A stretch of 64,000 nucleotides of DNA from Patescibacteria group bacterium (lineage in GTDB: Bacteria > Patescibacteriota > Patescibacteriia > JAHIZJ01): contig JBAZLK010000006.1 of assembly GCA_041650335.1 (NCBI GenBank), positions 5,788 through 69,787 of the forward strand. The letters are read 5' to 3'. Shown in pieces: positions 2,746 through 60,202 of this stretch (the stretch's first letter is position 1; each line of letters opens with the position of its first letter). A program made the position numbers and the translations under genes. The notes below the pieces were generated by a model. The model saw only the letters and a list, made by a program, of their open reading frames with translations, made no database searches and was not told the origin of the DNA.

Positions 2746-3438
2746 TTAGGCGGTTAACTGATAGCCAAATCCGCGAACAGTAGTGATCATTGGTTTGCCC
2801 GGGAACGGCTGATCAATCTTCTTTCGGAGCGAAGCAATAAACGCCTCGACCGTGTTTGGTAAAATATCGGAGTCAAAATCCCAGACATGCTGGATGATTT
2901 GATCTTTCGAGATTGTCCGGCCGGCATTCCTCATCAGATAGTCAAGCAGGGCAAACTCTTTTTTTGAAAGAGGAATACGCGTACCGGCACGCTTCACTTC
3001 AAAGGCGCGGGCATCGAGCTCGAGTTCGCCATGGCGCAGCACCGTACCGACGGTCTTGTCCGGCCGGCGAAGAAGCGCCCGGATTCGAGCCAGCAACTCC
3101 TCGAAAGAAAACGGTTTGACGAGATAGTCATCGGCGCCGCCGTCAAGTCCCTCGACGCGATCATTTGTTTTGTCGCGGGCGGTCAGAACGAGAATCGGCT
3201 GGTGCAAGCCCTTGGCCCGCATGGCTTGGCAAATATCCAGGCCGTCGCGGACGCCAGGCAGCATGCGATCGAGGATAAGCAGGTCAAACTGTCCGCGCAA
3301 CGCGCGTGCCATGCCCTGCTCGCCGTCAAAGACTGCGTCGACCGCGAATGACTCCTGTTCAAGGCCGCGCTTCAGCGCCTGAGCGATTTTATGTTCATCT
3401 TCGATAATGAGGATTCTCATGTTTACAGAATAAAACAC
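2746..3438 (-). CDS. OmpR-family response regulator
   Basis: Receiver domain (MRILIIEDEHKIA...DLLILDRMLPG) plus a winged-helix trans_reg_C C-terminus (TVRGFGYQL). Adjacent to the kinase. Confidence 0.9.
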   Translation of the reverse strand: MFYSVNMRILIIEDEHKIAQALKRGLEQESFAVDAVFDGEQGMARALRGQFDLLILDRMLPGVRDGLDICQAMRAKGLHQPILVLTARDKTNDRVEGLDGGADDYLVKPFSFEELLARIRALLRRPDKTVGTVLRHGELELDARAFEVKRAGTRIPLSKKEFALLDYLMRNAGRTISKDQIIQHVWDFDSDILPNTVEAFIASLRKKIDQPFPGKPMITTVRGFGYQLTA

Positions 3439-3566: not shown

Positions 3567-5588
3567 TTATGCGGTCGTGGGCGCGGCAAATTGGCTATTA
3601 TACAGGGAGGCATAATAGCCATCCCGGGCGAGCAGTTCCTCGTGTTTCCCTTGTTCGACAATGTTGCCGTCGCGGATGACCAGGATAAGGTCGGCGTGAC
3701 GGATGGTTGAGAGTCGGTGGGCGATCACGAAGCTCGTCTTACCGCGCATGAGCCGTTCCATAGCTTGCTGAATCAACACCTCAGTGCGGGTATCAACCGA
3801 GCTTGTGGCTTCGTCAAGGATGAGCATTGGCGTTTTTATGAGCATTGCCCGCGCAATCGTCAGAAGCTGCTTCTCGCCCTGTGAAACATTATCCGCTTCC
3901 TCGCCGAGCATCATGTCATAGCCATGCGGGAGCGAGCGGACAAAATGATCGACATGCGCTGCTTTGGCCGCTTCAACAATCTCCGCCTCAGACGCGTCCG
4001 GCTTGCCGTAGGCAATGTTCTCGCGGATTGTGCCGTTAAAAAGCCAGGTGTCTTGAAGGACCATGCCGAACAACCGGCGGACGCTCGAACGCTTCAACGT
4101 CCGGGTGTCGACGCCGTCAATTTTTATCGAGCCGCTGTTGACGTCGTAGAATCGCATCAGCAGATTAACAAGGGTGGTTTTTCCGGCGCCAGTCGGTCCG
4201 ACAATGGCCACGCGCTGGCCGGGATGGATCTTCGCGGTGAAATCCTTGATGATGGTTTTGCCCGTATCATAGCCGAAGACGACGTGATCAAATTCGACGG
4301 CACCGCTCACCCGGGCCAAGTCTTGGACATCCATCGGCTCGGCTGTTTCTTCGGCCTCAGCCAAAAACTCAAATACCCGCTCAGCCGAGGCCGCGGTCGA
4401 CTGAAAAACATTTGCGATATTGGCCGTCTGAGCAATCGGCTGGGTGAAGAGATTGAGATATTGGATAAACGCCTGAATGTCCCCGATGTTTACACGGCCG
4501 TTGATCGCCAGCCAGCCGCCGAGCACAGAGACGGCGACGAAATTTAAATTGCCGATAAAATTCATGAGCGGAAACATCAAGCCGGAGAGAAACTGAGACT
4601 TCCAGGCGCTTCGGTAGAGATCGTTATTAATGCCGATGAATTTCGCGATGGAGCGTTGCTGGCCGTTGAAAACCTTCATGACGCTGTGGCCGCTATACAT
4701 TTCTTCAATATGGCCGTTGATATGACCGAGCGTGTCTTGCTGCTCTGTAAAATACCGCTGGGAGCGCTTTGTGATCAGCGCGATCACGCCAAAACTGATC
4801 GGCAACGCAATAACAGAAACTAGCGTCAGCTGCCAACTGATCGATAGCATCATGGCCAGAACGCCAATAATCATAGTGGCGGAGGTGACCACTTGGGTCA
4901 GGCTCTGATTCAGCGTCTGGCTGACCGTATCGACATCATTGGTAACGCGGCTTAAGACCTCGCCATGAGTCTGTGTATCGAAATATTTCAGGGGCATCCG
5001 ACCGATTTTTGTAGAGATATCACTTCGAAACCGGTAACTAATCTTCTGTGACACGTTTGTCATAACCCAACCCTGGATATAGCTAAACAGCGCGCTTAAG
5101 CCATATAGAAGCAGCAACTCTTCAGCGATCGTAATGAGCTTGTCGTAGTGAAAGATTGGCTTGGTGGACAAGTCGAGCGACTTGATAGCGTTCAACGCAG
5201 TGGAGGGTATTTTATCGACCACGGTCGGTGGCAAACGCTGAATGAGCTGTTCCCCGGTCGTGCCCGGCGGCAGTTGTTTCGTCAATTCGGTATAGGCGGT
5301 GCGATCGATGAAATCCGTCACGACCTGGTTTGTCATTCGGCCAAGGATCTTCGGGCTGACAATGGCGAAAACAGTGCTGGCGATGGCAAACACGAGGACC
5401 ACGATGATTTGAATCCAAAACGGACGCAAGTACGAAATCAACTGTCGCATGGTTCGTTTGAAATTCTTGGCCTTCGCCCCAGCCACCATCATACCCATGG
5501 GGCCACCGCGACCCATTGGTCCGAATCGGCCGGGTGGTGTCGGCGGAAGATTGCCGGCGGTTGAGGTTGTTCGCGGCTGTTCGCTCAT
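3567..5588 (-). CDS. ABC transporter ATP-binding/permease fusion (exporter, MsbA/MdlB-like)
   Basis: Six-TM domain followed by an NBD with Walker A GPTGAGKTT, signature LSQGEKQLL and Walker B ILDEATSSVD. Gly/Pro/Met-rich N-terminal extension. Confidence 0.9.
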   Translation of the reverse strand: MSEQPRTTSTAGNLPPTPPGRFGPMGRGGPMGMMVAGAKAKNFKRTMRQLISYLRPFWIQIIVVLVFAIASTVFAIVSPKILGRMTNQVVTDFIDRTAYTELTKQLPPGTTGEQLIQRLPPTVVDKIPSTALNAIKSLDLSTKPIFHYDKLITIAEELLLLYGLSALFSYIQGWVMTNVSQKISYRFRSDISTKIGRMPLKYFDTQTHGEVLSRVTNDVDTVSQTLNQSLTQVVTSATMIIGVLAMMLSISWQLTLVSVIALPISFGVIALITKRSQRYFTEQQDTLGHINGHIEEMYSGHSVMKVFNGQQRSIAKFIGINNDLYRSAWKSQFLSGLMFPLMNFIGNLNFVAVSVLGGWLAINGRVNIGDIQAFIQYLNLFTQPIAQTANIANVFQSTAASAERVFEFLAEAEETAEPMDVQDLARVSGAVEFDHVVFGYDTGKTIIKDFTAKIHPGQRVAIVGPTGAGKTTLVNLLMRFYDVNSGSIKIDGVDTRTLKRSSVRRLFGMVLQDTWLFNGTIRENIAYGKPDASEAEIVEAAKAAHVDHFVRSLPHGYDMMLGEEADNVSQGEKQLLTIARAMLIKTPMLILDEATSSVDTRTEVLIQQAMERLMRGKTSFVIAHRLSTIRHADLILVIRDGNIVEQGKHEELLARDGYYASLYNSQFAAPTTA

Positions 5589-7360
5589 AGGGCCTCCGGT
5601 GCGAGATTACCGTTTTTAGAATTCTGGAAGCGTCCGCGAAGTTCTTCTTCCGAGAGTTGCGAGAGCGCAATTTCCCGATAGACGGGGCATGATTTCATTA
5701 GCTCGGCGTGTTTACCCTGGCCGACGATCCGGCCTTCGTCGAGAACAATAATCTTGTCGGCATCCATGATCGTGCTGATTCGTTGGGCCACAATCAGAAC
5801 AGTTTGGCCGCGCGTTTCTGCTTTCAGGGCGTGGCGCAGGCGCGCGTCAGTAGCAAAGTCAAGCGCTGAAAAGCTGTCGTCAAAAATAATGATCTCGGGT
5901 CGGCGGATTAAGGCCCGGGCGATGGACAGACGCTGTTTTTGACCGCCTGATACGTTTGTTCCGCCCTGAGCGATCGGCGACTCATACGCACCAGGGAGGT
6001 TGGCTACGAACTCTTTCGCCTGGGCGACGTCAACCGCGTGTTTAACGTCCTCATCTGTTACGTGGGGTGCACCGTATTTTAGATTTGAAGTCACGCTGCC
6101 GGAAAAGAGGATGCCTTTCTGTGGCACATAGCCGATCTTGGCGTAGAGGTCTTCCTGGCGCATCTGTCGGATGTCGACCCCGTCGACGCGGATAACACCG
6201 TCGGACACGTCGTAAAAACGCGGTATTAAATTGATCAGGGTTGATTTGCCACTGCCGGTACTGCCGACAAAAGCCGTTGTCTGTCCGGACTGAGCGGTAA
6301 AGGTGATATTTTCGAGAACCGCTGTGTCAGCGCCGGGGTATGTAAACGTAACATGGTCGAATTCAACCTGTCCGGTGGCATTCGCTGGCGTTACGGGTTG
6401 GTCAGGGTCGGTGATAGTCGCTTCGGTCTCGAGCACTTCGGCCACGCGCTGGGCCGAAACAGAGGCGCGCGGCACCATGATAAAGATGATCGATATCATC
6501 AGGAAGGAAAAAATCACCTGGCTGGCATAAATCATAAAGGCCATCATGCCGCCGATCTGCAGGCTGCCCGACTCAATGAGGTGTGCGCCCACCCAAACGA
6601 TGCCGACCGCCGTTACGTTCAAAATCAGCATCATGATCGGCTGCATAACCACCATTAAACGATTAACGAACAGGTTGACGCCGGTTAGATCGACGTTGGC
6701 CGCGTCAAACTTTTTTTCTTCATAGGCTTCGCGATTGAATGCACGAATCACGCGCAATCCTGTCAAAATCTCGCGCGTCACGAGGTTCAGCCGGTCAACC
6801 AATTTTTGCAGGCGTCTAAATCGCGGCAGGGCGATGGAAAACAAAACCACAATAATCGTCAGGAGCACGCCGACGGCTAAGCCCATGATCCAGGTCATGG
6901 AGGGAGCGTTTTGGTAGGCCTTTGCGATTGCCCAGATGCCCATAATCGGCGCCATGAGCGCGAGACGGAGAATCATGACGAGAACCATCTGAATCTGCTG
7001 GATATCATTCGTCGAACGGGTGATGAGTGAGGCCGTGGAAAAGGTATTAAACTCGGTCAGAGAAAAGCTCTCAACTTTGGTAAATACCCGTTCGCGGATC
7101 GTCTTGGCGAAGCCAGTGGCGATGCGGGCGGCAAAATAGCCGACCACAATGTTGGCCAAGCCGCCGCCCAGCGCCATGGCCAGCATCAGCGCACCGGTTG
7201 TCCAGACGAGATGTGAATTTTGGCCGACAATGCCATCGTTGATGATTTTGGCCATGTAGTCTGGCAGCGTCAGATTGGCGGCGACCATCAAGAAAACCAT
7301 TGCGATGAGGACGAGCAATTGCCAAACATACGGTTTAAAATATGAGAGAAGTTTTTTCAT
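5585..7360 (-). CDS. ABC transporter ATP-binding/permease fusion (partner half-transporter)
   Basis: TMD plus NBD (GSTGSGKST, LSGGQKQRL, IIFDDSFSALD). Overlaps the upstream gene by 4 nt, as is typical of a heterodimeric exporter pair. Confidence 0.9.
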   Translation of the reverse strand: MKKLLSYFKPYVWQLLVLIAMVFLMVAANLTLPDYMAKIINDGIVGQNSHLVWTTGALMLAMALGGGLANIVVGYFAARIATGFAKTIRERVFTKVESFSLTEFNTFSTASLITRSTNDIQQIQMVLVMILRLALMAPIMGIWAIAKAYQNAPSMTWIMGLAVGVLLTIIVVLFSIALPRFRRLQKLVDRLNLVTREILTGLRVIRAFNREAYEEKKFDAANVDLTGVNLFVNRLMVVMQPIMMLILNVTAVGIVWVGAHLIESGSLQIGGMMAFMIYASQVIFSFLMISIIFIMVPRASVSAQRVAEVLETEATITDPDQPVTPANATGQVEFDHVTFTYPGADTAVLENITFTAQSGQTTAFVGSTGSGKSTLINLIPRFYDVSDGVIRVDGVDIRQMRQEDLYAKIGYVPQKGILFSGSVTSNLKYGAPHVTDEDVKHAVDVAQAKEFVANLPGAYESPIAQGGTNVSGGQKQRLSIARALIRRPEIIIFDDSFSALDFATDARLRHALKAETRGQTVLIVAQRISTIMDADKIIVLDEGRIVGQGKHAELMKSCPVYREIALSQLSEEELRGRFQNSKNGNLAPEAL

Positions 7361-41919: not shown

Positions 41920-42648
41920 CTAGCAGATCGTGGAGCGGTAATGAGCAGGCCGATCCTGGAACGAAGCAATGCCGTCGCTCACCGACAGCGGCCAGAGCAT
42001 GCAGAGGTTGCCGTCTTCCGGATCGTCCGGATGTTCGAGCAGTGCGATTGCCTGCACGAGTCCGGCGCCGATTTCGAAGTACTCGGGCAGTAAGGCCGGA
42101 TTCTCGTGATTGTTCGGCGCGAAGCTGAAGACGGCCACATGCTTGCCCCACCAAGGCTGGGAACGCATGGTGGTTCCTCGCGTCACGCCGCGGAGATGGG
42201 CGGTGGCATGTATGGTCGGGGTCAGACGGCTCTTCCGGACCTGGAGTCGTCCGTCCCTCAGACCGCGAGAACAGGCGTCAACGACAGCCGCGTCGAGCTG
42301 CTGCAGGCCGTTACAGTAGATGTACGGCTGATCGGTGCGGATCGTGGTATCCGCGTTGATGAAGCGGAGACGAACGCGCCGCGAGTCGTTCGGGAAGTCG
42401 GGCTGATCGCAAAACAGCCGGCCGACGATGTGGACATCCTCGATCCGCTGGCCGTCCGGCAACATCGGAGTCGCGACGGTCCGTCGTCCGTACACGGCCA
42501 CGTGGCGGGTTTCATCCCTTACCGGAATTTCGACCACCCGTTCGAGGTGCAGGGCGATCTTCATCGACGTTGATTCGAGCGTAGCATCTTCGCCGGGTTG
42601 GCTGAACGCTTGCTCGATAGCACCAAACAGTGGACAGGTCAGTACCAT
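41920..42648 (-). CDS. hypothetical protein (GC-rich)
   Basis: 242 aa with no recognisable motifs. Divergent from tig. About 62% GC. Confidence 0.35.
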   Translation of the reverse strand: MVLTCPLFGAIEQAFSQPGEDATLESTSMKIALHLERVVEIPVRDETRHVAVYGRRTVATPMLPDGQRIEDVHIVGRLFCDQPDFPNDSRRVRLRFINADTTIRTDQPYIYCNGLQQLDAAVVDACSRGLRDGRLQVRKSRLTPTIHATAHLRGVTRGTTMRSQPWWGKHVAVFSFAPNNHENPALLPEYFEIGAGLVQAIALLEHPDDPEDGNLCMLWPLSVSDGIASFQDRPAHYRSTIC

Positions 42649-42937
42649 GACTTCTCCTCCTCATGTCGAGCCGACGACAACTGAAGAAGAGATAGTTATG
42701 TCCCGTGGTTCGATGGCTCTCACCACAGGCTCTGGTTTTGGCACCTTCTTCCAGCCGGTTTGGCCGGAAGGGTTGCCGAGCGGTCAATGGGCCAGCACCC
42801 TCGCGCTACTCGGCATAACTTCTCGACGGCGAGGACAGTGTAGGAAAGAACGCTTCGTCTGTCAAATTACGACTGACGAAGGTTTACAAAAGGCCGATAA
42901 TAGGCTACCATACAAAAACGTAACACCTATTTTTTAA

Positions 42938-52195: not shown

Positions 52196-52617
52196 TGCTG
52201 GACAAAGCCATCAACTACTTTTTGATACGCCCCGAAACTACATTCAGTATAGTTTTCTTTCGTCAGCCAGCGATAGCCCTTTGATTCCTCGTTGATAACA
52301 ATCTCGCCTTCGAGAAAACGGCAGCAATAAAAAACTAAGAACAGATTCATATTCGGATGTCTAACATTCGTCGGTGCGACGCGAAACTTAAAAACGTCAA
52401 AGAGATTATTAATCACAAAGCGTATATTTAAGCCGAGTTCCTCCAACAATTCACGGCGCAAGCATTCCGATACTGGCTGATCGATTTCCGACGCTTCAAT
52501 CCGGCCGCCGGGGACGTCCCAATATTCGCTATAAGCATCTTTCAACGCTAAGAAGCGCGAACCGTTCTGGAGAAAGGCTTTTATTCCTACCTGAAAATTT
52601 TTTCCTGCCATTGCCAT
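52183..52617 (-). CDS. NUDIX hydrolase
   Basis: Nudix box GGRIEASEIDQPVSECLRRELLEELGL. Confidence 0.8.
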   Translation of the reverse strand: MAMAGKNFQVGIKAFLQNGSRFLALKDAYSEYWDVPGGRIEASEIDQPVSECLRRELLEELGLNIRFVINNLFDVFKFRVAPTNVRHPNMNLFLVFYCCRFLEGEIVINEESKGYRWLTKENYTECSFGAYQKVVDGFVQQCLS

Positions 52618-52769
52618 GGTTTTATTCGTTCAATTATGTAAATTTACCATGAGGGACAGCAGGTGAACAAGCGCTTGTTCACCTGTGGTAGAGATTATCA
52701 AAAATGCCAATAAAATTGTATGAATAATTATTATAACTCTAATATTAGCCAAATATATTAAATAAGGTC

Positions 52770-52798
52770 TTGACAACAAGCAAAAAGTACGCTATTAT
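52770..52798 (+). promoter_or_regulatory. consensus sigma70 promoter TTGACA-17-TATTAT
   Basis: ttgaca at 52770-52775 and tattat at 52793-52798, at the start of an 800-bp gene-free region. Confidence 0.55.
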
Positions 52799-52804
52799 GC
52801 CTTG

Positions 52805-52993
52805 TTACACGATTGATTAGCGAACTTTATACGATCAAACGAGGAGAGAGTTTCCGCTAATACTAGCGGAATCGCCGCCCTGAGAAAGCGGCAAAAAAGC
52901 AACATTAGCCATATTCCTAGTTTAGGGTGGTGGTTTGTTGCGGCGTTCTCTCTTCTGATTGAACATCGCAGCAAAGCGCCACCCTTTTTTTTC
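52805..52993 (+). ncRNA. candidate small RNA (~190 nt) ending in a long Rho-independent terminator
   Basis: The transcript contains hairpins ccgcta-atac-tagcgg and gccgc-cctgagaaa-gcggc, and ends in an 18-bp imperfect stem GGGTGGTGGTTTGTTGCGGCG...CGCAGCAAAGCGCCACCC plus a T8 tract. No ORF. Confidence 0.35.
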
Positions 52994-53114
52994 TGCCGAA
53001 GCTCAACGTGTAGGCAGGTTGTTTGTCCGAATATCGGGGCTGATAGAGGTCACACATATTACATGGGCCTGAACTATCGCCCCGGGATTCGGGGAAATAA
53101 ACCAGAGGGGACGG

Positions 53115-53240
53115 ACATGGAGGGGAGTAGAGAACGGTTTGGATAGCTGATTCATTCGGGCTAACCCTCGAGGCTTCAGTGAAACAAACCGGTCCGCCGA
53201 GCTTCGGCTCAAAGACGGACACCTCGCCTCCAGCTTCGTC
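53115..53240 (+). ncRNA. structured RNA-like element, tandem copy 1
   Basis: Conserved blocks ACATGGAGGGGAGTAGAGAACGG, TGATTC, CGGGCTAACCCTCG, GGCTTCAG, GAGCTTCGGCTCAAA (a UUCG-capped hairpin) and CTCGCCTCCAG. The flanks of the UUCG hairpin are self-complementary (GTCCGCC / GACGGAC). Confidence 0.4.
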
Positions 53241-53332
53241 CCTTTGGGCTTCCGCCAGAGCGTACCGCGGCTATTGTCGATGGTATGCTCCGGCGGGAAA
53301 AGGCACCTTACAATAAATATCCCCCCGCACCG

Positions 53333-53456
53333 ACATGGAGGGGAGTAGAGAACGGTCCGCTGACCTGATTCTCCCGGGCTAACCCTCGCGGCTTCAGGAA
53401 AGCGCACTGGGCATGTGAGCTTCGGCTCAAAACATGTCAGTCTCGCCTCCAGTTCG
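53333..53456 (+). ncRNA. structured RNA-like element, tandem copy 2
   Basis: Same conserved blocks as copy 1. The variable segments differ but stay self-complementary (CATGT / ACATG flanking the UUCG hairpin; CTGAC / GTCAG), i.e. compensatory changes. Confidence 0.4.
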
Positions 53457-53503
53457 GTGCTGAGTATGCCTCGAACGTTGACAATTTATCCTCCGCCTGA
53501 CTT

Positions 53504-53512
53504 TGGTATAAT
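53504..53512 (+). promoter_or_regulatory. extended -10 promoter (TGgTATAAT) for island gene A, embedded in 12-bp inverted repeat atttatcctccg/cgggaggataaat
   Basis: tttggtataat at 53501-53512, with an inverted repeat at 53484-53495 and 53551-53562. Confidence 0.4.
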
Positions 53513-53617
53513 ACGAAAGTTAGACGGAGCCTCCTGACAATAGTTGTTGGGAGGATAAATTCAGGGTACGAGACACGGGGGTACGACACGGCAGAAATGC
53601 CAAGGAGGATCGAGATC

Positions 53618-54448
53618 ATGAAGAAGTTCTTCGTCGGCATGGGTGGCATCGCGGTCACGGCCATCATCTTGACCATCATCTTTGCCTTCTGGGGCCACAA
53701 TCTCAGTGAGCGCAAGGGCGAGCTGAACACCTGGAGCGGGGAACTGGCGAGCAAGGAGGCCGTGCTGAACCAGAAGGCTGAGGCACTCAACAACGCTCAG
53801 GCCGCGCTCAACCAGGCAAAGAACACGTTCGATGAACGCGTTCAGCGCGCCGAGTACATGCGGCAGCTCTTCACCGGCTTTCTGGCTCCGAGCTGGGAGC
53901 AGCAGGTGAAGATGGCGCGGGATTCCTACGGGGTCCTCGACCAGCGCTTCGATCAGTATCGCACGGTCGCCGAGGCGATGGCCAATCTCGGCAACTACAA
54001 CCTCACCTGGGAAGACGTCGGCATCAACGGCAACGAAGTGCGTTCGGCGCACGACCGGCTCGGACGCACCCTGGCGACCGAGCTGATCCAGTGCCTGGAC
54101 CAGCCGATCGAGTCACGGCGCGGACATTTCATCGGTCAGGGCGAAGGCTCGATCTCACTCGACGACCCCTGGGACGTCGGTCGCGAAATCGTCCAGCTGG
54201 TGAACGCCAGCGGGACGACCATCAAGGACTACGGCCTGAGCCCGGAACAATTCAGGGCCAAGCTGGTCCAAGACGCCCGCGAGCTCCTCGGCTATGCCCG
54301 GACCCTCAAGGGGACGGAGCAGTACCGCTGGGCCATGCAGTCGCTCGGTTCGTCCATCAACGAGTACAACATCGCCGGGCGCGAGCTCGGCCTCACCCAG
54401 AAGGAGAGGGATTTCCTCTGGGGGGAGTGCCGCTGCTACGTTCGGTGA
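53618..54448 (+). CDS. island gene A: hypothetical membrane-anchored coiled-coil protein
   Basis: RBS aaggagga; MKKFFVGMGGIAVTAIILTIIFAFWG TM helix, then a coiled coil and a C-terminal globular region. 63% GC. Confidence 0.45.
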   Translation: MKKFFVGMGGIAVTAIILTIIFAFWGHNLSERKGELNTWSGELASKEAVLNQKAEALNNAQAALNQAKNTFDERVQRAEYMRQLFTGFLAPSWEQQVKMARDSYGVLDQRFDQYRTVAEAMANLGNYNLTWEDVGINGNEVRSAHDRLGRTLATELIQCLDQPIESRRGHFIGQGEGSISLDDPWDVGREIVQLVNASGTTIKDYGLSPEQFRAKLVQDARELLGYARTLKGTEQYRWAMQSLGSSINEYNIAGRELGLTQKERDFLWGECRCYVR

Positions 54449-54517
54449 GCCCGACTCTCGCGTTGTTCTTCGGAACAAGGCAGGCGCGAGAATTCCAATG
54501 CACATCGCATATCTTCG

Positions 54518-54546
54518 GAGACGTCCTGCCCGTCTCCACCTTTTCT
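54518..54546 (+). terminator. Rho-independent terminator after island gene A
   Basis: ggagacg-tcctgcc-cgtctcc followed by accttttct. Confidence 0.55.
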
Positions 54547-54660
54547 GAGTCCGTAAACATGTTTTGTGAGCTCAGAGATAGGTAAGAAAACAATTCAAAA
54601 TAGTGAATTTATAAGGAAGAATAAAGAAAATCCCGCATGGCGGGATACAATAATTATTAA

Positions 54661-54691
54661 TTCTGAATTTTGAATTGTGAATTATTCTCCC
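54661..54691 (+). promoter_or_regulatory. conserved 31-nt intergenic element (TTCTGAATT...ATTATTCTCCC), copy 1
   Basis: ttctgaattttgaattgtgaattattctccc. The second copy at 57219-57249 is identical over its first 9 and last 11 nt. Confidence 0.45.
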
Positions 54692-54832
54692 TTGTGGCCG
54701 GCGATATCGAGGCTCCGAACTCTCTCCCGGAGTTTCGATATCTCTGGTCATATCACGACAGAGATCGGTTCTGAAACGCTCGTACCAGAGTGGTGCGAGT
54801 CATGCCTGAGCCGTTTCGTGGAGGATTGATCA

Positions 54833-55459
54833 ATGCGTACGGCGTTGCTCGTGGTGTTGTTGCTCGCGGTTCTGACCGGTGTGGCGCTGGCTGACCAGTG
54901 CCGCGATACCGGGGTCCAGCTCCAAGTCGTGGCGATCGGCGACAAACCGCTCGCTGCGAGCGGTACGAAGGCGATCTTCATCGGTGAATACCTGAAGATC
55001 CCGAGTGCTAGTACGGGTGGCGAGATCTACTTCGCTACCGTCGGGGTCAAGCAGCCCCTGCCGCACGATTGCTGGGTCCAGCCGGCCGCGAGTTACCTCG
55101 GCGGCTGGTACGCGAAACACGATGCCTCATCGTTGGCTCTTACCGCTGGGGCCAAGGCTGGGCCGGTGTACCTGACCCTGGATTTCAAGCGCTTTTCGGC
55201 GGTCGGCAATCACCGGACCAAGTTCTGGTACCACACGGTCGACTGGAAGTTCAACGGTCCGGCCGATCAAAAAGCGAAGGACAGAACCGGCGAGTACACC
55301 GTCGGGATCCACTTCAACAAGGTGGATCAGTCCGAACGCTGGGGGCTTCATCTGGCCAACCAGCTGAAACCCCATATCAGGCTAGAGGCCCGGTACTACC
55401 GGGTTCTCTACGGCGACGACCCGGTTCAGTACTTCCGGGCGCAACTGGCTATCTCTTGA
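54833..55459 (+). CDS. island gene B: secreted hypothetical protein
   Basis: Signal peptide MRTALLVVLLLAVLTGVALA. 208 aa with two Cys and no known domain. Confidence 0.45.
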   Translation: MRTALLVVLLLAVLTGVALADQCRDTGVQLQVVAIGDKPLAASGTKAIFIGEYLKIPSASTGGEIYFATVGVKQPLPHDCWVQPAASYLGGWYAKHDASSLALTAGAKAGPVYLTLDFKRFSAVGNHRTKFWYHTVDWKFNGPADQKAKDRTGEYTVGIHFNKVDQSERWGLHLANQLKPHIRLEARYYRVLYGDDPVQYFRAQLAIS

Positions 55460-55799
55460 CAGAACACCTCCGTGGCCGGGGCAATGGCCACAACCGGAGA
55501 GGCGCGCGCATTCCATGCTCAGCCCGCGCCTCTCCACCTCTTCCGAATCCTTGAGGCCATACCTCGATGGTTCAGATGAGTGACGCGGCATAAATTCACG
55601 TGGTTCGTGGGAGCTGACCGGAGTGCACATATGTGGGTTTCATATGTGTTCACTGCGGTCCGTTCTAGGACTTCGGTGGCAGGCTAGCCGCATGGTTTGT
55701 CTGACATCGATGGTAGTATAAGACGCGCCCGTGGCGTCTTTCGCGCCGGTCCCATAAAGCCGGCATCACTCAAGGGGGTTCCTGTTTCTGAGAGGAGTA

Positions 55800-57131
55800 T
55801 TGGGAATGCGCAAGCTCATCCTGATCCTTGTCCTGATCCCGCTGGCATCCTTCGGGTTGGCCAGCCTGGCCTCGGCCCACGGTCCGATCGGTCCGCATTC
55901 GCACTATGCGCTGCGCGACCCTGACGACTGGGGGTTGTGGGGTATGTCGGGCGGCGACGAACGCGTCTGGGTCCTGCTCATGAAGGCAAACCCGGACATC
56001 CCGAACGACCGGCGCATGCTGCCTGGGTATGCGGTCAACATCCCGGAAGGCGTGGTCATGACTGAAGACGGTCGCGCGGTGCTCGCTGAGACGACGCCTG
56101 TGACCGAACCGACGATTCCTGCGCTCAGGCATGACAGCGGAGACTCTCTGCGGGCGGCCGTCACGAGGATGGTCGGGGCGCAGGAAAACCAAAGCCGCGC
56201 GCTGAACTTCCTCGTCTGGGCGCTCGTCGTCGTGTTGGCCATACTCCTCATCACCGCGTTGGTCGCGATGAGCCGGGGTAACACCATCAGGGCGCGCAAC
56301 GACGAACTCGCCAGGCTGCGGCAGCGGCACGACGAGGAGATCGAGAGCGCGACCCGGGAGGCGGTCGAGGAGGAACGACGCCGGCGGCGCGAGCGTATCC
56401 AGCAGGATCCGTACGCGGGTCCGCCGGTCGTGGCTGCGGGGCTGCCGACAGGCAACCTGGCCGCTGACTTCATGGTGAACCTCTACCGGCGGCGCTTCCC
56501 CGATCCGCAAGGTGCGGAACGTGGCACGCGCCTGCTTCGCGTCGAGCCGATCTGGGTCGAGGGCTACGACATCAACGTCGGTTACGGCGATGACCGTCAG
56601 CGCCGTCGCAACCTTATGGACCAGCAGCCGGCCTGGCGCGGCGTCTTCTCCTCCGGCGTGGTGATGGACCTGCTTCAAAGGTGCGCGAACGGCCTGTTCT
56701 CCGAGATCGGCCAACAGCTTCGCGACGACCAGGTGAGTCCGCGACTGGGTATTCCGGCGCTGGACGTTAACCGGCTGGTCTGGCCCGAGCTGGCCACCGT
56801 GACCGCGTCCGTTCCCGTGCCGACGGCTCCGGTCGCTACCACCGATGCTTCGGTCGCGCCTGCGACACCGGGAACGACCCCGTCGGCCGTTCCTCCGGGA
56901 CCGCGGATGTTCGTCATCATGGATGATACCGCCATCTACCGCCACCCGGGCGACACCGCCTTCCGCATGCTGTCCATCATCGGCCTCGACATCCAGTCCA
57001 GCGAGCGGGGCATCACGCTCCGGCGGGACGGGAACGAGATCGTTCTGGGAACGGATGCGGCGGGTGACGACCGGCAGGCGGCGAAGATCGGCGAGATCGT
57101 CGCGCGCGCCGGCACGGGCAGCGCCAGCTAG
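55800..57131 (+). CDS. island gene C: membrane protein with N-terminal signal, LysM-like segment, TM helix, Arg-rich coiled coil and Pro/Thr/Ala-rich linker
   Basis: MRKLILILVLIPLASFGLASLASA; VWVLLMKANPDIPNDRRMLPGYAVNIP is a LysM-like C-terminal motif; TM helix ALNFLVWALVVVLAILLITALVAM; then EERRRRRERIQQ. Confidence 0.45.
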   Translation: MGMRKLILILVLIPLASFGLASLASAHGPIGPHSHYALRDPDDWGLWGMSGGDERVWVLLMKANPDIPNDRRMLPGYAVNIPEGVVMTEDGRAVLAETTPVTEPTIPALRHDSGDSLRAAVTRMVGAQENQSRALNFLVWALVVVLAILLITALVAMSRGNTIRARNDELARLRQRHDEEIESATREAVEEERRRRRERIQQDPYAGPPVVAAGLPTGNLAADFMVNLYRRRFPDPQGAERGTRLLRVEPIWVEGYDINVGYGDDRQRRRNLMDQQPAWRGVFSSGVVMDLLQRCANGLFSEIGQQLRDDQVSPRLGIPALDVNRLVWPELATVTASVPVPTAPVATTDASVAPATPGTTPSAVPPGPRMFVIMDDTAIYRHPGDTAFRMLSIIGLDIQSSERGITLRRDGNEIVLGTDAAGDDRQAAKIGEIVARAGTGSAS

Positions 57132-57218
57132 CACAACCTGAACGGCATCGCGCCGTTCAACAACCAGGAGGGGGCTGTCACCTGACGGCTCCCTCCAAAC
57201 TTCTTTCATCAATCATCC

Positions 57219-57249
57219 TTCTGAATTCAGAATTATCCATTATTCTCCC
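57219..57249 (+). promoter_or_regulatory. conserved 31-nt intergenic element, copy 2 (contains perfect palindrome TTCTGAATTCAGAA)
   Basis: ttctgaattcagaattatccattattctccc. Confidence 0.45.
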
Positions 57250-57260
57250 CACCGAATTGA

Positions 57261-57620
57261 TTGTTTCATGGAAAACAGTCAGCTCGGTGCGGATGGAAGT
57301 CAATATCCGCCGGGAGGATGAACGTGACCGGTTATTTCATTGCCGCTCTGACGGGGATTGTTACCATGATCGTCGTCATCGTGGCCTACGAGCTCAGTAA
57401 GAGAATCCGTCGGGTTGCAGTCGCAAACGCCGTCATTATTGTACTCATTGTCGTGGCGGTTTCTGCAGGCATCTTCGGCTTATGCCAAGACGACAAAGTA
57501 AGCGACATCCCGACGGCCCGTGTGTTCGTCTGGCTTGTCTCCTACTCCGTAGGTGCCCTGGCGGGATGGCTCTTGAGGATCCAAGATCGTATCAACCGCT
57601 GGTTGCCGGAGCGCGATTGA
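57261..57620 (+). CDS. island gene D: small membrane protein (3 TM)
   Basis: 119 aa ORF. The start may instead be at MNVTGYF. Confidence 0.35.
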   Translation: MFHGKQSARCGWKSISAGRMNVTGYFIAALTGIVTMIVVIVAYELSKRIRRVAVANAVIIVLIVVAVSAGIFGLCQDDKVSDIPTARVFVWLVSYSVGALAGWLLRIQDRINRWLPERD

Positions 57621-57773
57621 GGCTGACCGCGATCTGAATACTTCTCGTAGTCTACTGCATGGCAGTCGTTGAAACAACGCGGCGCGACAGCCGCACGGTG
57701 TACGAGTGGCTCGATCAGTTTGGCCGGACCGGACGGTTATCGCCGTCGGACCCCACAAACACGGAGGCGACCC

Positions 57774-58187
57774 ATGTTCCAGATCGAACTATCCCACACC
57801 TTCAACGTCGCTGAGTGGCGCTGTCCGGTTACTCGCATCGTTGACCTCGACTTCGTCGAGCGGGCGATTCGTCGCGGCAGTCTCGTGACGTTCACCTGCG
57901 CCATCGTCGGCTGCCACCACGAGGGGCGAGCGGTCGAGATGCGGAATCTGGACCGTGCGAAGAACGACGGCGTCATCGTGATCCTCTGTCAGGGCCATGC
58001 CTGTCAGATGGAGGATCAGGGACATCGTACGTACTGGCTCGACCAGACCCTAAGCCACGCTGTCCGGGGATTCCAGCAGCACTTCGACGAGGTGGTTGTC
58101 CGGACTGCGGACAGCCGGCCGCACACGCACCTTGGCCTGGTTCTCCAGGCGGCCTGCCGCCAGCAGCTCAGCCGTCAGGTCGCCTGA
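57774..58187 (+). CDS. island gene E: Cys/His-rich hypothetical protein (possible zinc-binding)
   Basis: RBS acggagg. C..C....CHHEG....ILCQGHAC..EDQGH residues are candidate metal ligands. Confidence 0.4.
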   Translation: MFQIELSHTFNVAEWRCPVTRIVDLDFVERAIRRGSLVTFTCAIVGCHHEGRAVEMRNLDRAKNDGVIVILCQGHACQMEDQGHRTYWLDQTLSHAVRGFQQHFDEVVVRTADSRPHTHLGLVLQAACRQQLSRQVA

Positions 58188-58463
58188 CCATCTGCACACC
58201 GCTCGTTACGAACGAGCCTACTTCTTACCTCGCTGGCACAGTCTTTCATGGCTGCGTCAGCGGGGTGCCTCTTGAAGCGCGTGATGGTTTATGCCATCAT
58301 GCATTTCAAACGGGTATGAGTATCACGCGTTCTCAAGGAACACGTCTTTGGCTAGCGGTGGCATCCCTGAGAGGAAACGGCGGAATGCCAAGTTCCCTTT
58401 TGGGACTTTCATCACCGCAGGCTACTTGTGAACGTAGCGCTATCTATGAAGGAGGTGGGTTCA

Positions 58464-58763
58464 ATGGGTTCGTGGAGCAGGGCATTGCTTATCGCGGTGA
58501 ACGTCGTGCTCTTACTTCCCAGTGTCGCCGGATTCGTCATCTGCATCCGCCTGATGTGGTTACGGCCGCGACCCGGAGACGTGACCTACCAGCACTTACG
58601 GAAGCGGATGACGTTTGCGGTGCTGTTGTTGGGAGCGCTCGAAGCCCTGTTGGTTAGCCAGCTGGGTCTCGGGGTAGCCGGGTTGATCACGAAACAAGCG
58701 CTGTATTTCGCGATCGCCTTTCAGGCGGTTCCGCGCTGCAGCCGGCTGGTCAGAAGTCCCTAG
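58464..58763 (+). CDS. island gene F: small membrane protein (2-3 TM)
   Basis: RBS gaaggaggtg precedes ATG 58464. The track ORF begins at the GTG at 58428. Confidence 0.4.
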   Translation: MGSWSRALLIAVNVVLLLPSVAGFVICIRLMWLRPRPGDVTYQHLRKRMTFAVLLLGALEALLVSQLGLGVAGLITKQALYFAIAFQAVPRCSRLVRSP

Positions 58764-58779
58764 ACAAGGAGGTCGAGTC

Positions 58780-59454
58780 ATGCAGGTCAAGAGTTTGATG
58801 TACCGGTTGGCCACTTTCCATGTCACCATGAGGGGCGGCCGCATCCCGTCCTTGGTTCTCATCACGGCGCTCTTGCCCGTCGTTCTCGGCGCGCTTGTCT
58901 GTGCTCCGCCGAACCCGATAGAACACCTGGTCACCCGTGAACAAGCGACCTTTGTACTCCAGGCGGTTGCCCAGGCGCAGAATGATCAGCTCGAGTCGGT
59001 ACCGCTCTATCCCGCACCGGGCATCACCGGACTGGTTCCGGTGTGTCCGACGAAGGGTGCGGAAGTCTGGACGGTCTTTGACGGCGGAGTCAGGAACGAA
59101 CAAACGATGCGTCGGATGGTCTGGACGCGGTTTCCTTCCACGGGCCGCCGAGCCAGCCCATTCTCTGATCCGTCAGCGTTCCAGCCGATGGACGACATCG
59201 GCAATCAACCCGCGTCCAAGACCTGTCCGGGCATCGCGGAAAATGTTCGCTACGTCTGGTATAATGTCGATCTGGCGCCGTCCGTCGAGCGACATTTCCG
59301 GATCTGGGGCGACCATTGGTACCTCGAGGTCCAGGGCGCGTCGTCGGGTCAGTACCGACTGTCGATTGCTCATGACCGTCAGGGGCGACGTAAGGCCGAG
59401 GACGTTTCCAGTTTGATCGAGAGGGCGCTCGCGTTCTGCCAGGCGAGACGTTAG
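58780..59454 (+). CDS. island gene G: hypothetical protein with N-terminal TM/signal anchor
   Basis: RBS caaggagg. 224 aa, no known domain. Confidence 0.4.
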   Translation: MQVKSLMYRLATFHVTMRGGRIPSLVLITALLPVVLGALVCAPPNPIEHLVTREQATFVLQAVAQAQNDQLESVPLYPAPGITGLVPVCPTKGAEVWTVFDGGVRNEQTMRRMVWTRFPSTGRRASPFSDPSAFQPMDDIGNQPASKTCPGIAENVRYVWYNVDLAPSVERHFRIWGDHWYLEVQGASSGQYRLSIAHDRQGRRKAEDVSSLIERALAFCQARR

Positions 59455-59552
59455 CCGCCAGCACATTACATCAGGCTTATTGAGGAGACGCCTTAACCCC
59501 ACACCAGTCGTCATGTACCAGACGGTTCATGACTTCCGGTGCGGGGACTCCT

Positions 59553-59593
59553 CACTTTTTCCGAATTCAGAAGCATCAGTTTCTGAATTCAGA
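59553..59593 (+). promoter_or_regulatory. inverted repeat GAATTCAGAA-N8-TTCTGAATTC upstream of island gene H
   Basis: Same half-sites as the palindrome at 57219, separated here by 8 nt. Confidence 0.45.
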
Positions 59594-59630
59594 GGAAGTG
59601 GTCTGACAACTGTATGAAGGAGGTGTTTTT

Positions 59631-59918
59631 ATGACCCATACATTGTCTACCGCATGGTTCCCGTTCCTGATCGGGTTTGCGGGTATTGTCACGATAGCGG
59701 CAATCTTCAGTCGGCTACCGGTATTTTACCCGCGTCCCAAACTGCTCCTCTTCGGCATCACCGGCATCATCGTACTCACAACCTCGTGGCTTCTCCGTTT
59801 CCGCGGGAATGAGCCGATCGTGTACGCCGGCACCTGGGTCGGGATGATGGCCGGACTGGCATATCCAATCGCGCTGCAGCGGTTGAAACGCCAGATCCGG
59901 AGAATGCTTGTCCGATGA
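59631..59918 (+). CDS. island gene H: small membrane protein (3 TM)
   Basis: RBS gaaggaggtg. 95 aa. Confidence 0.4.
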   Translation: MTHTLSTAWFPFLIGFAGIVTIAAIFSRLPVFYPRPKLLLFGITGIIVLTTSWLLRFRGNEPIVYAGTWVGMMAGLAYPIALQRLKRQIRRMLVR

Positions 59919-60202
59919 CCCACTTCTCTTTCAAAGGGTAGGCACGACCGATGCCGTCATGTCTACCCCTCTTCTCTAAATTTGTTAGAATAAAGCTAGC
60001 AGGTTTGGAGAAGGGCCCACCTTCGCCTCTTTCTCGACCGGCGGACCTCTGGATCGACTGTCCGGTGTGAGCGTTCGAAAAAATCTCTCTCCTCGGGCGT
60101 TTGTATCACAGTTGGTTTCACCGCTGCCGTTACCCCTGGCTATTTCCGGGGCTATGGCAATCGGCCACCGGTTTCGCCGGTCTAGAAAAAGGCAATCCCG
60201 CA

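Follow-up and report, generated by a model that had tools for sequence, protein, structure and literature searches.

Sequence evidence for a reiterated, structured leader RNA module upstream of an exchangeable envelope-gene island in Patescibacteria

Tandem arrangement is known for riboswitches, and those that respond to metabolites toggle a short P1 stem. Other structured RNAs, for example EAR (eps-associated RNA) and the put elements of phage HK022, lie in leaders or between the cistrons of long operons and act on their own transcripts; the large ornate RNAs (OLE, GOLLD, ROOL, raiA and HEARO) have one fixed architecture, which in OLE, GOLLD and ROOL is multi-domain and takes up ~550–800 nt without internal open reading frames (ORFs). 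Patescibacteria have tiny genomes with few recognisable regulators, and we know of almost no characterised non-coding RNAs in them. Here we describe an element, E, of which two tandem copies lie in a stretch of 64,000 nt from a Patescibacteria group bacterium (GTDB lineage Bacteria; Patescibacteriota; Patescibacteriia; JAHIZJ01; assembly GCA_041650335.1, contig JBAZLK010000006.1, positions 5,788–69,787 of the forward strand). This whole stretch is called the window. That E is an uncatalogued, lineage-restricted structured RNA module is well supported by the comparison of its predicted folds among related genomes, and a literature search on non-coding RNAs of the candidate phyla radiation (CPR) found no description of it.

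Two copies of E and their relatives

The two copies in the window are offset by 218 nt (Table 1). An earlier note, made from the letters of this DNA, had proposed two tandem structured copies with six shared blocks, and alignment, pattern scans and folds all bear this out. In a pairwise alignment, both copies contain ACATGGAGGGGAGTAGAGAACGGT, CTGATTC, CGGGCTAACCCTCG, GGCTTCAG, GAGCTTCGGCTCAAA and CTCGCCTCCAG. A two-block pattern drawn from the shared motifs has 2 sites in the 64 kb (0.00 expected from 100 shuffles), and the pattern TGGAGG-N90-120-CCTCCAG has 2 matches, with 0.02 expected. Folded alone, copy 1 is predicted to form a three-way junction of −59.5 kcal/mol (z −4.06), and copy 2 the same junction at −61.9 kcal/mol (z −4.07); none of 200 shuffles was as stable as the native copies.

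The consensus fold begins with an outer stem, P0, which is followed by P1 (UGGAGG-G-GAG / CUC-G-CCUCCA) and a 7-nt purine-rich J1/2. The first arm consists of P2a, a GA/GAA internal loop, P2b and a terminal P2c hairpin with an invariant G-U pair; the second comprises a covarying stem, P3a, an AAA bulge and a GAGC-UUCG-GCUC hairpin. Comparison of the two copies shows that P0, P2a, the second-arm base, and P3a diverge in sequence while their pairing is kept. Thus, the segments beside the UUCG hairpin read GUCCGCC/GACGGAC in copy 1 and GCAUGU/ACAUGU in copy 2, both self-complementary, and the outer stem preserves its complementarity through a change from GACGGA/UUCGUC to CACCGA/UCGGUG. The closing stem of copy 1 amounts to 22 bp and reaches ~53097–53249.

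Relatives were sought with two covariance models, R1, built from four E copies, and R2, built from twenty. The search returned 23 copies in 10 syntenic Patescibacteria genomes, 1–4 per locus. All 23 share the strand of the genes that follow them, where they score 56–137 bits, vs. at most 22 bits on the reverse strand. The module is ~135–165 nt long, and units are spaced 172–450 nt apart. Every syntenic genome has a gene-poor gap of 0.5–2 kb beside a NUDIX gene, and database annotation assigns the homologs of both flanking proteins, NUDIX and cNMP/GAF, to Patescibacteria.

An exact-pattern scan covered 185,579 species genomes with patterns so strict that diverged relatives could be missed; it gave one true locus, in the closest relative (L003), and four chance matches. 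The strict patterns found three loci in metagenomes, two of them already known, and no match in viral contigs. These collection scans show one E locus per contig (contigs of 131–431 kb), and the window holds its two adjacent copies only. No E was found near the cNMP/GAF gene of more distant Patescibacteria (Nomurabacteria and others), where synteny is lost and the result says little on true absence. As far as these searches reach, the family appears real but narrow, at about 10 genomes.

Two observations concern these relatives themselves. The record of L003 (CAYJKP010000002.1) is titled "uncultured Gammaproteobacteria bacterium", yet it is syntenic with the window and near-identical to it in the NUDIX region; it is probably a mislabelled metagenome-assembled genome. 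In the more distant Patescibacteria (L024/L025, 6949–8960; L027, 6866–8954), the cNMP-binding/GAF gene directly follows a T2SSE (type IV pilus ATPase-like) gene, an order that hints at a link between the cNMP-binding/GAF protein and pilus function.

In the R2-fitted alignment, 94.4% of cells form standard pairs, compared with 35–42% when partners are slid by 1–3 columns. Pairs changed on both sides number 28 of 42; all pairs of P2a, P2b and P3a covary (7/7 in P2a and 7/7 in P3a), and none of 500 shuffles attained any of five measures. An alignment fitted to a model leans toward that model; hence, the analysis was repeated independently of it with MAFFT and RNAalifold on nine diverse copies, which recovered the same junction de novo, with compensatory changes at 24 of 42 pairs. 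The stems contain many G-U pairs, which are possible on the gene strand only. Judged from these alignments, the covariation is that of an RNA-level structure, and the earlier note's preference for RNA structure over a DNA-binding array is upheld by both counts. Of the checks which that note had suggested, an Rfam search gave no match, and the collected homologs (23 copies) do covary.

Closely related sequences illustrate how the fold is maintained. In the L003 ortholog of copy 2, a C>G change in the 3' strand of P2a (GCGCACUG to GCGGACUG) turns a C-C mismatch into a C-G pair; a nearby CU to UC change in the 5' strand falls mostly within the adjoining loop. The hairpin between the two copies is kept in L003, where ~100 extra nt follow it. 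Because of this insertion, the spacing of E copies cannot be regarded as fixed.

Where, then, does E resist change? P1 (UGGAGG/CCUCCA, then G) is invariant in sequence, and CCUCCAG:UGGAGG is the only fully invariant stretch. One G-U and one G-C pair are invariant in P2c, and the GAGCUUCGGCUCAAA hairpin is kept in 15–17 of 20 copies. Invariant positions are mostly within helices; J1/2, although rich in purines, varies. The fold accommodates inserted hairpins in the P2c loop (L003 copy 1, L012), in J1/2 (L014 and the second copy of L009) and in J3/1 (third copy of L007), and P3 is swapped for a different, larger hairpin in 4–5 copies. A pseudoknot through the P2c loop was considered and rejected, since the loop sequence is not conserved and takes a 21-nt insertion. 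The closing stem (P0 extension, P0 and P1) spans 16–29 bp (median ~22) at −20 to −47 kcal/mol in 21 copies; it reaches the length of double-stranded RNase III substrates (taken as ~20 bp or more).

Table 1. Positions of E and of the features around it. Coordinates refer to the window unless a relative is named.
Feature	Position	Strand	Description
Palindrome TCTAATATTAGC	52738..52749	.	~20 nt upstream of leader −35; operator-like
Predicted sigma-70-type promoter TTGACA-17-TATTAT	52770..52798	+	11/12 match in sigma-70 scan
Domain A	52804..52992	+	Long predicted hairpin 52925–52984, then U8 52985–52992; fold −70.1 kcal/mol, z −4.7
Domain A relatives	L007 4605–4783; L012 4596–4773; L009 4489–4683	-	Conserved after promoter
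Module B	53027..53092	+	Long predicted hairpin with GGUCACA...CAUGGGCC
E copy 1	53110..53243	+	Predicted three-way junction: P0, P1 (UGGAGG/CCUCCA), purine-rich J1/2, P2a-P2b-P2c, P3a-AAA-P3b(UUCG); R1 156.5 bits, R2 137.2 bits
Spacer hairpin between E copies	53249..53299	+	Predicted hairpin; kept in L003
E copy 2	53328..53462	+	R1 152.8 bits, R2 134.3 bits; fold z −4.07
Module D	53473..53575	+	Invariant GAACGUUGACAAUUU 53473–53487; hairpin D1 53491–53529; hairpin D2 53530–53554; fold z −4.4
First downstream gene	53618..54448	+	276 aa from ATG 53618; Shine-Dalgarno (SD) AAGGAGG 53602–53608; N-terminal transmembrane segment and coiled coil
Differing first gene in two relatives	L022 11661–12472 vs. 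L023 11732–12781		L023 276-aa protein is a homolog of the window's first gene

The leader around E and the genes that follow it

E does not stand by itself. On the evidence of the conserved and covarying stretches described below, it is one module of a modular untranslated RNA of 0.7–2 kb that contains domain A, modules B, C and D, and one to four copies of E. The only conserved promoter lies ~330 nt upstream of copy 1 and adjoins the divergent NUDIX gene; its pattern, TTGACA-N17-TAT(A/T/C/G)(A/C)T, is kept in 10/10 loci, and it likely starts the whole leader RNA. A palindrome of the GCTAATATTAGC type occurs ~20–30 nt upstream of the −35 element in 10/10 syntenic loci, with three copies in L006, and a second copy (GCTAATACTAGC, 52856–52867) lies inside domain A; such a repeat is present in the window and in L003. 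This palindrome is probably the operator of a transcription factor. A separate, perfect palindrome, CAGGTGAACAAGCGCTTGTTCACCTG, is found at 52655–52685, in the interval that separates the start of NUDIX from the leader promoter; L003 and L006 also have one (GGCGAACAAGCGCTTGTTCGCC).

Domain A occupies the ~180–210 nt directly after the promoter, and its hairpin of ~20 bp followed by U5–8 is seen across genomes. A purine tract, GAGGAGAGAG (52841–52850), is complementary to the hairpin loop CUCUCUUCU (52948–52956), making this pairing a candidate pseudoknot. Hairpin, U-run and both tracts are kept in 10 genomes, six pairs show compensatory changes, and L017 keeps the pairing of tract and loop with different sequences. 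Domain A, which has no Rfam match at an E-value of at most 10, looks like a terminator or attenuator, or like a separate small RNA (sRNA). In L007, the ~55 nt between the U-run of domain A and the first E contain no promoter-like site.

Modules B and C vary in their placement. The module B motif (GGCGGUCACAA..CAUG..GGCCGA) adjoins E copies in L007, L008, L012, L014, L017, L006 and L009; the module C hairpin (CUUCAGCGUUUCCCC...GGGAGGAAUGCUGAAG) is absent from the window and recurs elsewhere. Both recur between E copies in several genomes (L012 ~4305–4410, L008, L007, L017 and L014). Two further kinds of sequence were noticed in these regions. Several E copies are followed by linkers rich in purines and poor in C, such as GAAGGAAGAAUGAAGGAUGAAGG (ARN/GGA repeats; L007 ~4050–4105(−), L009 ~3210–3285(−), L006, and L003 ~6690–6740(−)), and L006 and L009 carry small GC-rich palindromes (CCCGCCUACG...CGUAGGCGGG) as insertions at various points, an E junction among them.

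Module D is another uncatalogued leader motif. It is present in eight genomes (window, L003, L006, L007, L009, L012, L017 and L018), 110–190 nt before start codons, and in BLAST comparisons its block at 53473–53496 is 95–96% identical in L012 and L017. The D1 stem covaries over the eight genomes: CUCC[G/C/U] pairs with [C/G/A]GGAG, the fifth pair being G:C, C:G or U:A, and the upper stems of the window and L003 are wholly different, each complementary. D2 (GUCCUGAYC...GGUCGGGAC) covaries too. Because D1 and D2 covary, this stretch is probably transcribed from upstream.

That conclusion bears on the start of the first gene's transcript. The earlier note had placed E outside any 5' untranslated region, with an independent extended −10 promoter, TGGTATAAT, behind it. 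Neither proposal is borne out by comparison. TGGTATAAT, at 53504–53512, sits within the loop of the covarying hairpin D1; it is not preserved even in L003 (TGGATATAAG) and is missing from the other genomes. A sigma-70 scan calls no promoter at TGGTATAAT; the conserved TTGACA at 53478 is 23 nt from it, and this hexamer has no −10-like hexamer at 16–19 nt in 7/8 genomes. An independent promoter after copy 2 was thus rejected as a conserved feature, and no conserved promoter was seen between E and the gene. In other genomes, moreover, E copies lie between genes, 32–99 nt before start codons. The simplest reading would be one transcript from the 52770 promoter, with regulated or leaky read-through of the domain A hairpin. 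The earlier suggestion of a single large ornate RNA is itself unlikely, as the one to four copies are interspersed with ORFs.

The first downstream gene is set to start at 53597 in the ORF list, and its likely start is 53618, 155 nt after the end of copy 2. Its product has no Pfam match and sub-threshold NCBIfam matches only; homologs occur in L003 (29% identity) and L023. Across genomes, E sits 32–260 nt before genes, and all four intercistronic copies lie closer to the start of the gene that follows (32, 34, 69 and 99 nt away) than to the stop of the gene before (164–224 nt). The genes directly after E are unrelated between genomes; most have a signal peptide or a transmembrane N-terminus and lack a family assignment. 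The window's island at 53600–60200 (~6.5 kb) encodes hypothetical proteins, mostly membrane or secreted, at a G+C content of 59–63% vs. ~52%. Some relatives encode beta-rich proteins with aromatic C-terminal ends (e.g., L007 1984–2823, ...SVSFSYSF).

A comparison of L022 with L023 is instructive with respect to gene exchange. The two loci are 99% identical through A-E1-E2, and their first genes, between D and the next E, differ (185 vs. 276 aa). Because the RNA modules are shared while the genes differ, the island is taken to exchange genes as its RNA modules stay. The boundaries of the swap lie inside D2 and ~90 nt upstream of E, not at the ends of E. One E copy of L023 is 97% identical to another, which suggests gene conversion. 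The Pfam domains of neighbouring proteins are NUDIX, SpoU, cNMP/GAF and N_methyl only. The NUDIX neighbour was considered as an RppH-type RNA decapping enzyme; its matches were generic MutT/NudI-like ones below threshold, and this assignment was rejected.

Possible roles of E

What might such a module do? The reading that we favour, with about even confidence, is that E is a cis-acting processing, stability or translation module that serves each promoterless envelope gene. The modular leader RNA would start at the 52770 promoter and run into the variable membrane and secreted protein genes, and E would fold autonomously and constitutively in its leader or intercistronic position. The 16–29-bp clamp, which resembles a processing stem of the RNase III type, would insulate this fold from its flanks. 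The helices conserved in sequence (P1, P2b/c and P3b) probably offer a docking surface to a protein, or else to the machinery of translation or degradation. Through such contacts, E would govern how the mRNA that directly follows it is processed, stabilised or translated, without sensing a metabolite. Because E is reiterated (1–4 copies, often one before each gene), every promoterless gene of the island would be served in this manner. A constitutive, insulated fold rather than a switch is suggested because the clamp is long and stable, the junction is variable and insertions are tolerated; the sequence conservation of the helices suggests that a protein, or the machinery of translation or decay, recognises them.

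Several points weigh against this reading. The likeness of the clamp to an RNase III substrate is one of stem length alone. A strong hairpin with U8, at 52925–52992, stands between the promoter and E. The invariant GGAGG/CCUCC helix could reflect switching between Shine-Dalgarno and anti-Shine-Dalgarno sequences instead, and the first E copies of L007, L012 and L023, which are followed by U5, could be the 3' ends of a separate RNA. Finally, the cell counts given above come from ~10 related genomes, several of which are very close to one another, and overstate the number of independent events.

Two of these points lead to alternatives at the RNA level. If the U5 runs are 3' ends, then E copies might be stand-alone sRNAs or ribonucleoprotein domains, excised at their closing stems or forming part of one ornate RNA, and acting in trans as a sponge or scaffold, with their position near genes incidental. 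A strong conserved promoter followed by a structure-dense, non-coding 0.7–2 kb in a reduced genome would fit this proposal, as would a copy number that varies as in sponge RNAs, closing stems of RNase III-substrate length, and internal arms conserved more than a processing hairpin needs. We nevertheless regard it as unlikely, given that ORFs lie among the copies, which tend to sit toward the downstream gene start, that the order and number of modules change from genome to genome (unexpected for one ornate RNA) and that no model of OLE, GOLLD, ROOL, raiA or HEARO matches. Slightly less likely in our view is a new riboswitch aptamer, in which a ligand would stabilise P1, with CCUCCAG as the anti-SD and UGGAGG as the anti-anti-SD, and would switch translation (or termination) of the surface-protein gene. 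Here, the best argument is the invariance of CCUCCAG:UGGAGG and of nothing else, as if P1 had to be able to pair with SDs of the GGAGG type. The tandem arrangement counts for it too, together with the location of E upstream of genes, often 32–99 nt from the start, the CUCC/GGAG helix that also forms the D1 hairpin just before the genes, and the functional heterogeneity of the envelope proteins encoded downstream. However, a closing helix of 16–29 bp is very stable, unlike switchable P1 stems; J1/2 is poorly conserved and takes up large insertions, and several copies have a different P3. More than 300 nt separate the first copies of arrays from any SD, the complementarity to the SD is limited to a trivial 5-nt CCUCC:GGAGG, with no extended or covarying alternative pairing found, and no Rfam riboswitch matches.

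Explanations at the level of DNA or protein fare worse. We consider it very improbable that E is a DNA-level repeat (MITE/REP-like) or an attC-like recombination site for gene cassettes, its RNA fold being a by-product. Although E has terminal inverted repeats of ~13 nt (UUCUCCGCACCGA...UCGGUGCGGAGAA) and sits in a variable island with a gene swap between L022 and L023 and 97% identical copies in L023, its copies are confined to one locus in the window and in each contig scanned, show strong strand asymmetry, and include old paralogs with compensatory changes in P2a and P3a that palindromes driven by terminal inverted repeats would not explain. No integrase or transposase was found among the Pfam-annotated neighbours of nine E-bearing loci (flanks of up to ~8 kb, less at contig ends), no GTTRRRY core sites are present, and the swap boundaries do not coincide with the ends of E. 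The idea that the region encodes a minus-strand protein, with the repeats as protein repeats, is scarcely credible. It starts from an ORF of 134 aa at 53003–53407(−) and from one minus-strand frame that is stop-free over 53105–53465; the earlier note had been right that three does not divide the period of 218 nt and mistaken that no frame is open through both copies. Because the frame has at least four stops in L003, the closest relative, the ORF does not appear to be a conserved gene; every frame is interrupted in L012, and the substitutions are compensatory in the RNA stems.

A broader reading is also conceivable, though doubtful. Domain A together with modules B, C, D and E would then form a novel RNA-based control system of episymbiotic ultrasmall bacteria, in which a regulated strong promoter and attenuator feed autonomous domains, each of which recruits a factor or senses a signal and so licenses promoterless, often exchanged surface-protein genes; E would be a new riboswitch or ribonucleoprotein class in control of a hypervariable island of envelope genes. 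Despite tiny genomes, this clade keeps 0.7–2 kb of structured, covarying non-coding RNA before a variable island of membrane and secreted proteins, which are likely candidates for host contact. E could show how Patescibacteria control the expression of surface proteins, and it represents a family that Rfam lacks; its relevance is limited by its narrow distribution, and the family is known from sequence alone.

E among known RNA families and elements

Searches with Rfam 15 place E outside the catalogued families. At the gathering score, cmscan of the window gives six tRNAs and an unrelated SAM riboswitch only. At an E-value of at most 10, neither 52600–53700 (1.1 kb) nor 53100–53470 (371 nt, both copies) has any match, and the ten syntenic loci give tRNA-Leu only. 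The SAM-I riboswitch, at 42693–42821(−), scores 49.7 bits, above its gathering score, and lies upstream of the ORF at 41920–42648(−).

Individual families to which E bears some likeness were considered in turn. The ydaO and yybP-ykoY riboswitches, to which the earlier note had pointed, share with E a short GGGGAGUAG-like string at its 5' side. The yybP-ykoY RNA is a four-helix structure with conserved L1/L3 loops, and ydaO has a pseudo-two-fold symmetric fold; E is predicted to fold as a three-way junction that a long stem closes, and neither covariance model (RF00379, RF00080) matches at an E-value of at most 10. The resemblance to the THF riboswitch is a faint one of strings, with no Rfam match. 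A T-box (RF00230) was rejected as well: domain A has UAGGGUGGU, but there is no Rfam match at the same threshold and no downstream gene related to aminoacyl-tRNA. 5S rRNA is a three-way junction of ~120 nt closed by its 5' and 3' ends, with an internal loop and hairpin in one arm and a small loop in the other. E resembles it in topology only, copy 1 also showing a GUGAAAC string and a pairing of the CCUGA/UCAGG type; RF00001 has no match at an E-value of at most 10 on 53100–53470, the similar strings come in a different order, and E occurs as multiple diverged leader copies. For the GA/GAA internal loop, a K-turn or a box C/D motif was rejected on geometry. TIGR arrays, found in CPR bacteria and phages, are built of 36-nt units in which the edge and loop repeats are box C/D-like and which have two spacers, and are associated with a Nop-domain Tas protein (PMC12045711). 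The units of E are ~135 nt, their variable segments are self-complementary stems rather than spacers, and the Pfam domains of the neighbouring proteins include no Nop domain.

Repeated DNA elements (REP/BIME, ERIC, BOX and Correia/MITEs) resemble E in being repeated, intergenic and variable in copy number, with terminal inverted repeats, and in being transcribed, as E presumably is. They differ in that E is found at a single locus, as deeply diverged copies with compensation in the internal arms and a three-way-junction core, and no target-site duplications or transposase were seen at E in the loci examined. Membership among MITE or REP elements was rejected: E lacks their many dispersed copies in the 64 kb and in the contigs of 131–431 kb, and inverted termini alone would be insufficient to account for P2a and P3a, which differ completely with compensation. 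An integron attC site or cassette array was likewise rejected, there being no Phage_integrase among the neighbours (flanks of up to ~8 kb) and the termini of E being UUCUCCGCACCGA / UCGGUGCGGAGAA, not RYYYAAC...GTTRRRY.

The large ornate RNAs are comparable in that they too are long, structure-dense non-coding regions of conserved structure near a tRNA gene. The earlier note's likening of E to GOLLD and ROOL found no backing: no covariance model of these, or of OLE, raiA or HEARO, matches in the window or in the 10 syntenic loci. In contrast to their fixed architecture, E loci consist of separable modules that vary in order and number, with ORFs between them.

Tandem aptamers such as the glycine riboswitch (RF00504), as well as c-di-GMP-I, share with E the format of ~100–140-nt leader modules, sometimes paired, with a junction and coaxial arms, and c-di-GMP-I shares with it a place upstream of heterogeneous genes for membrane and secreted proteins. 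They differ in the absence of covariance-model similarity and in that the closing stem of E is very long and stable, its junction poorly conserved and its insertions tolerated. E also occurs in up to four copies, some of them between genes; because singletons exist, cooperation in tandem would not be required.

EAR and HK022 put, to which we claim no homology, resemble E in their structured nature and in their positions. RNase III stems, as in T7 early mRNAs and rRNA operons, resemble it in that E has long interrupted stems of substrate length; simple processing hairpins, unlike E, have no elaborate conserved core. By analogy, E seems most like the intra-operon cis-acting RNAs and processing stems, and superficially like the tandem riboswitch aptamers. 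Judged by its predicted structure, it is a new family of a known kind, the structured leader RNA, unlike any Rfam family tested. Within that kind, it stands out by being reiterated, by having an invariant helix that is SD/anti-SD-like and by accompanying, in CPR bacteria, an island of exchangeable envelope genes.

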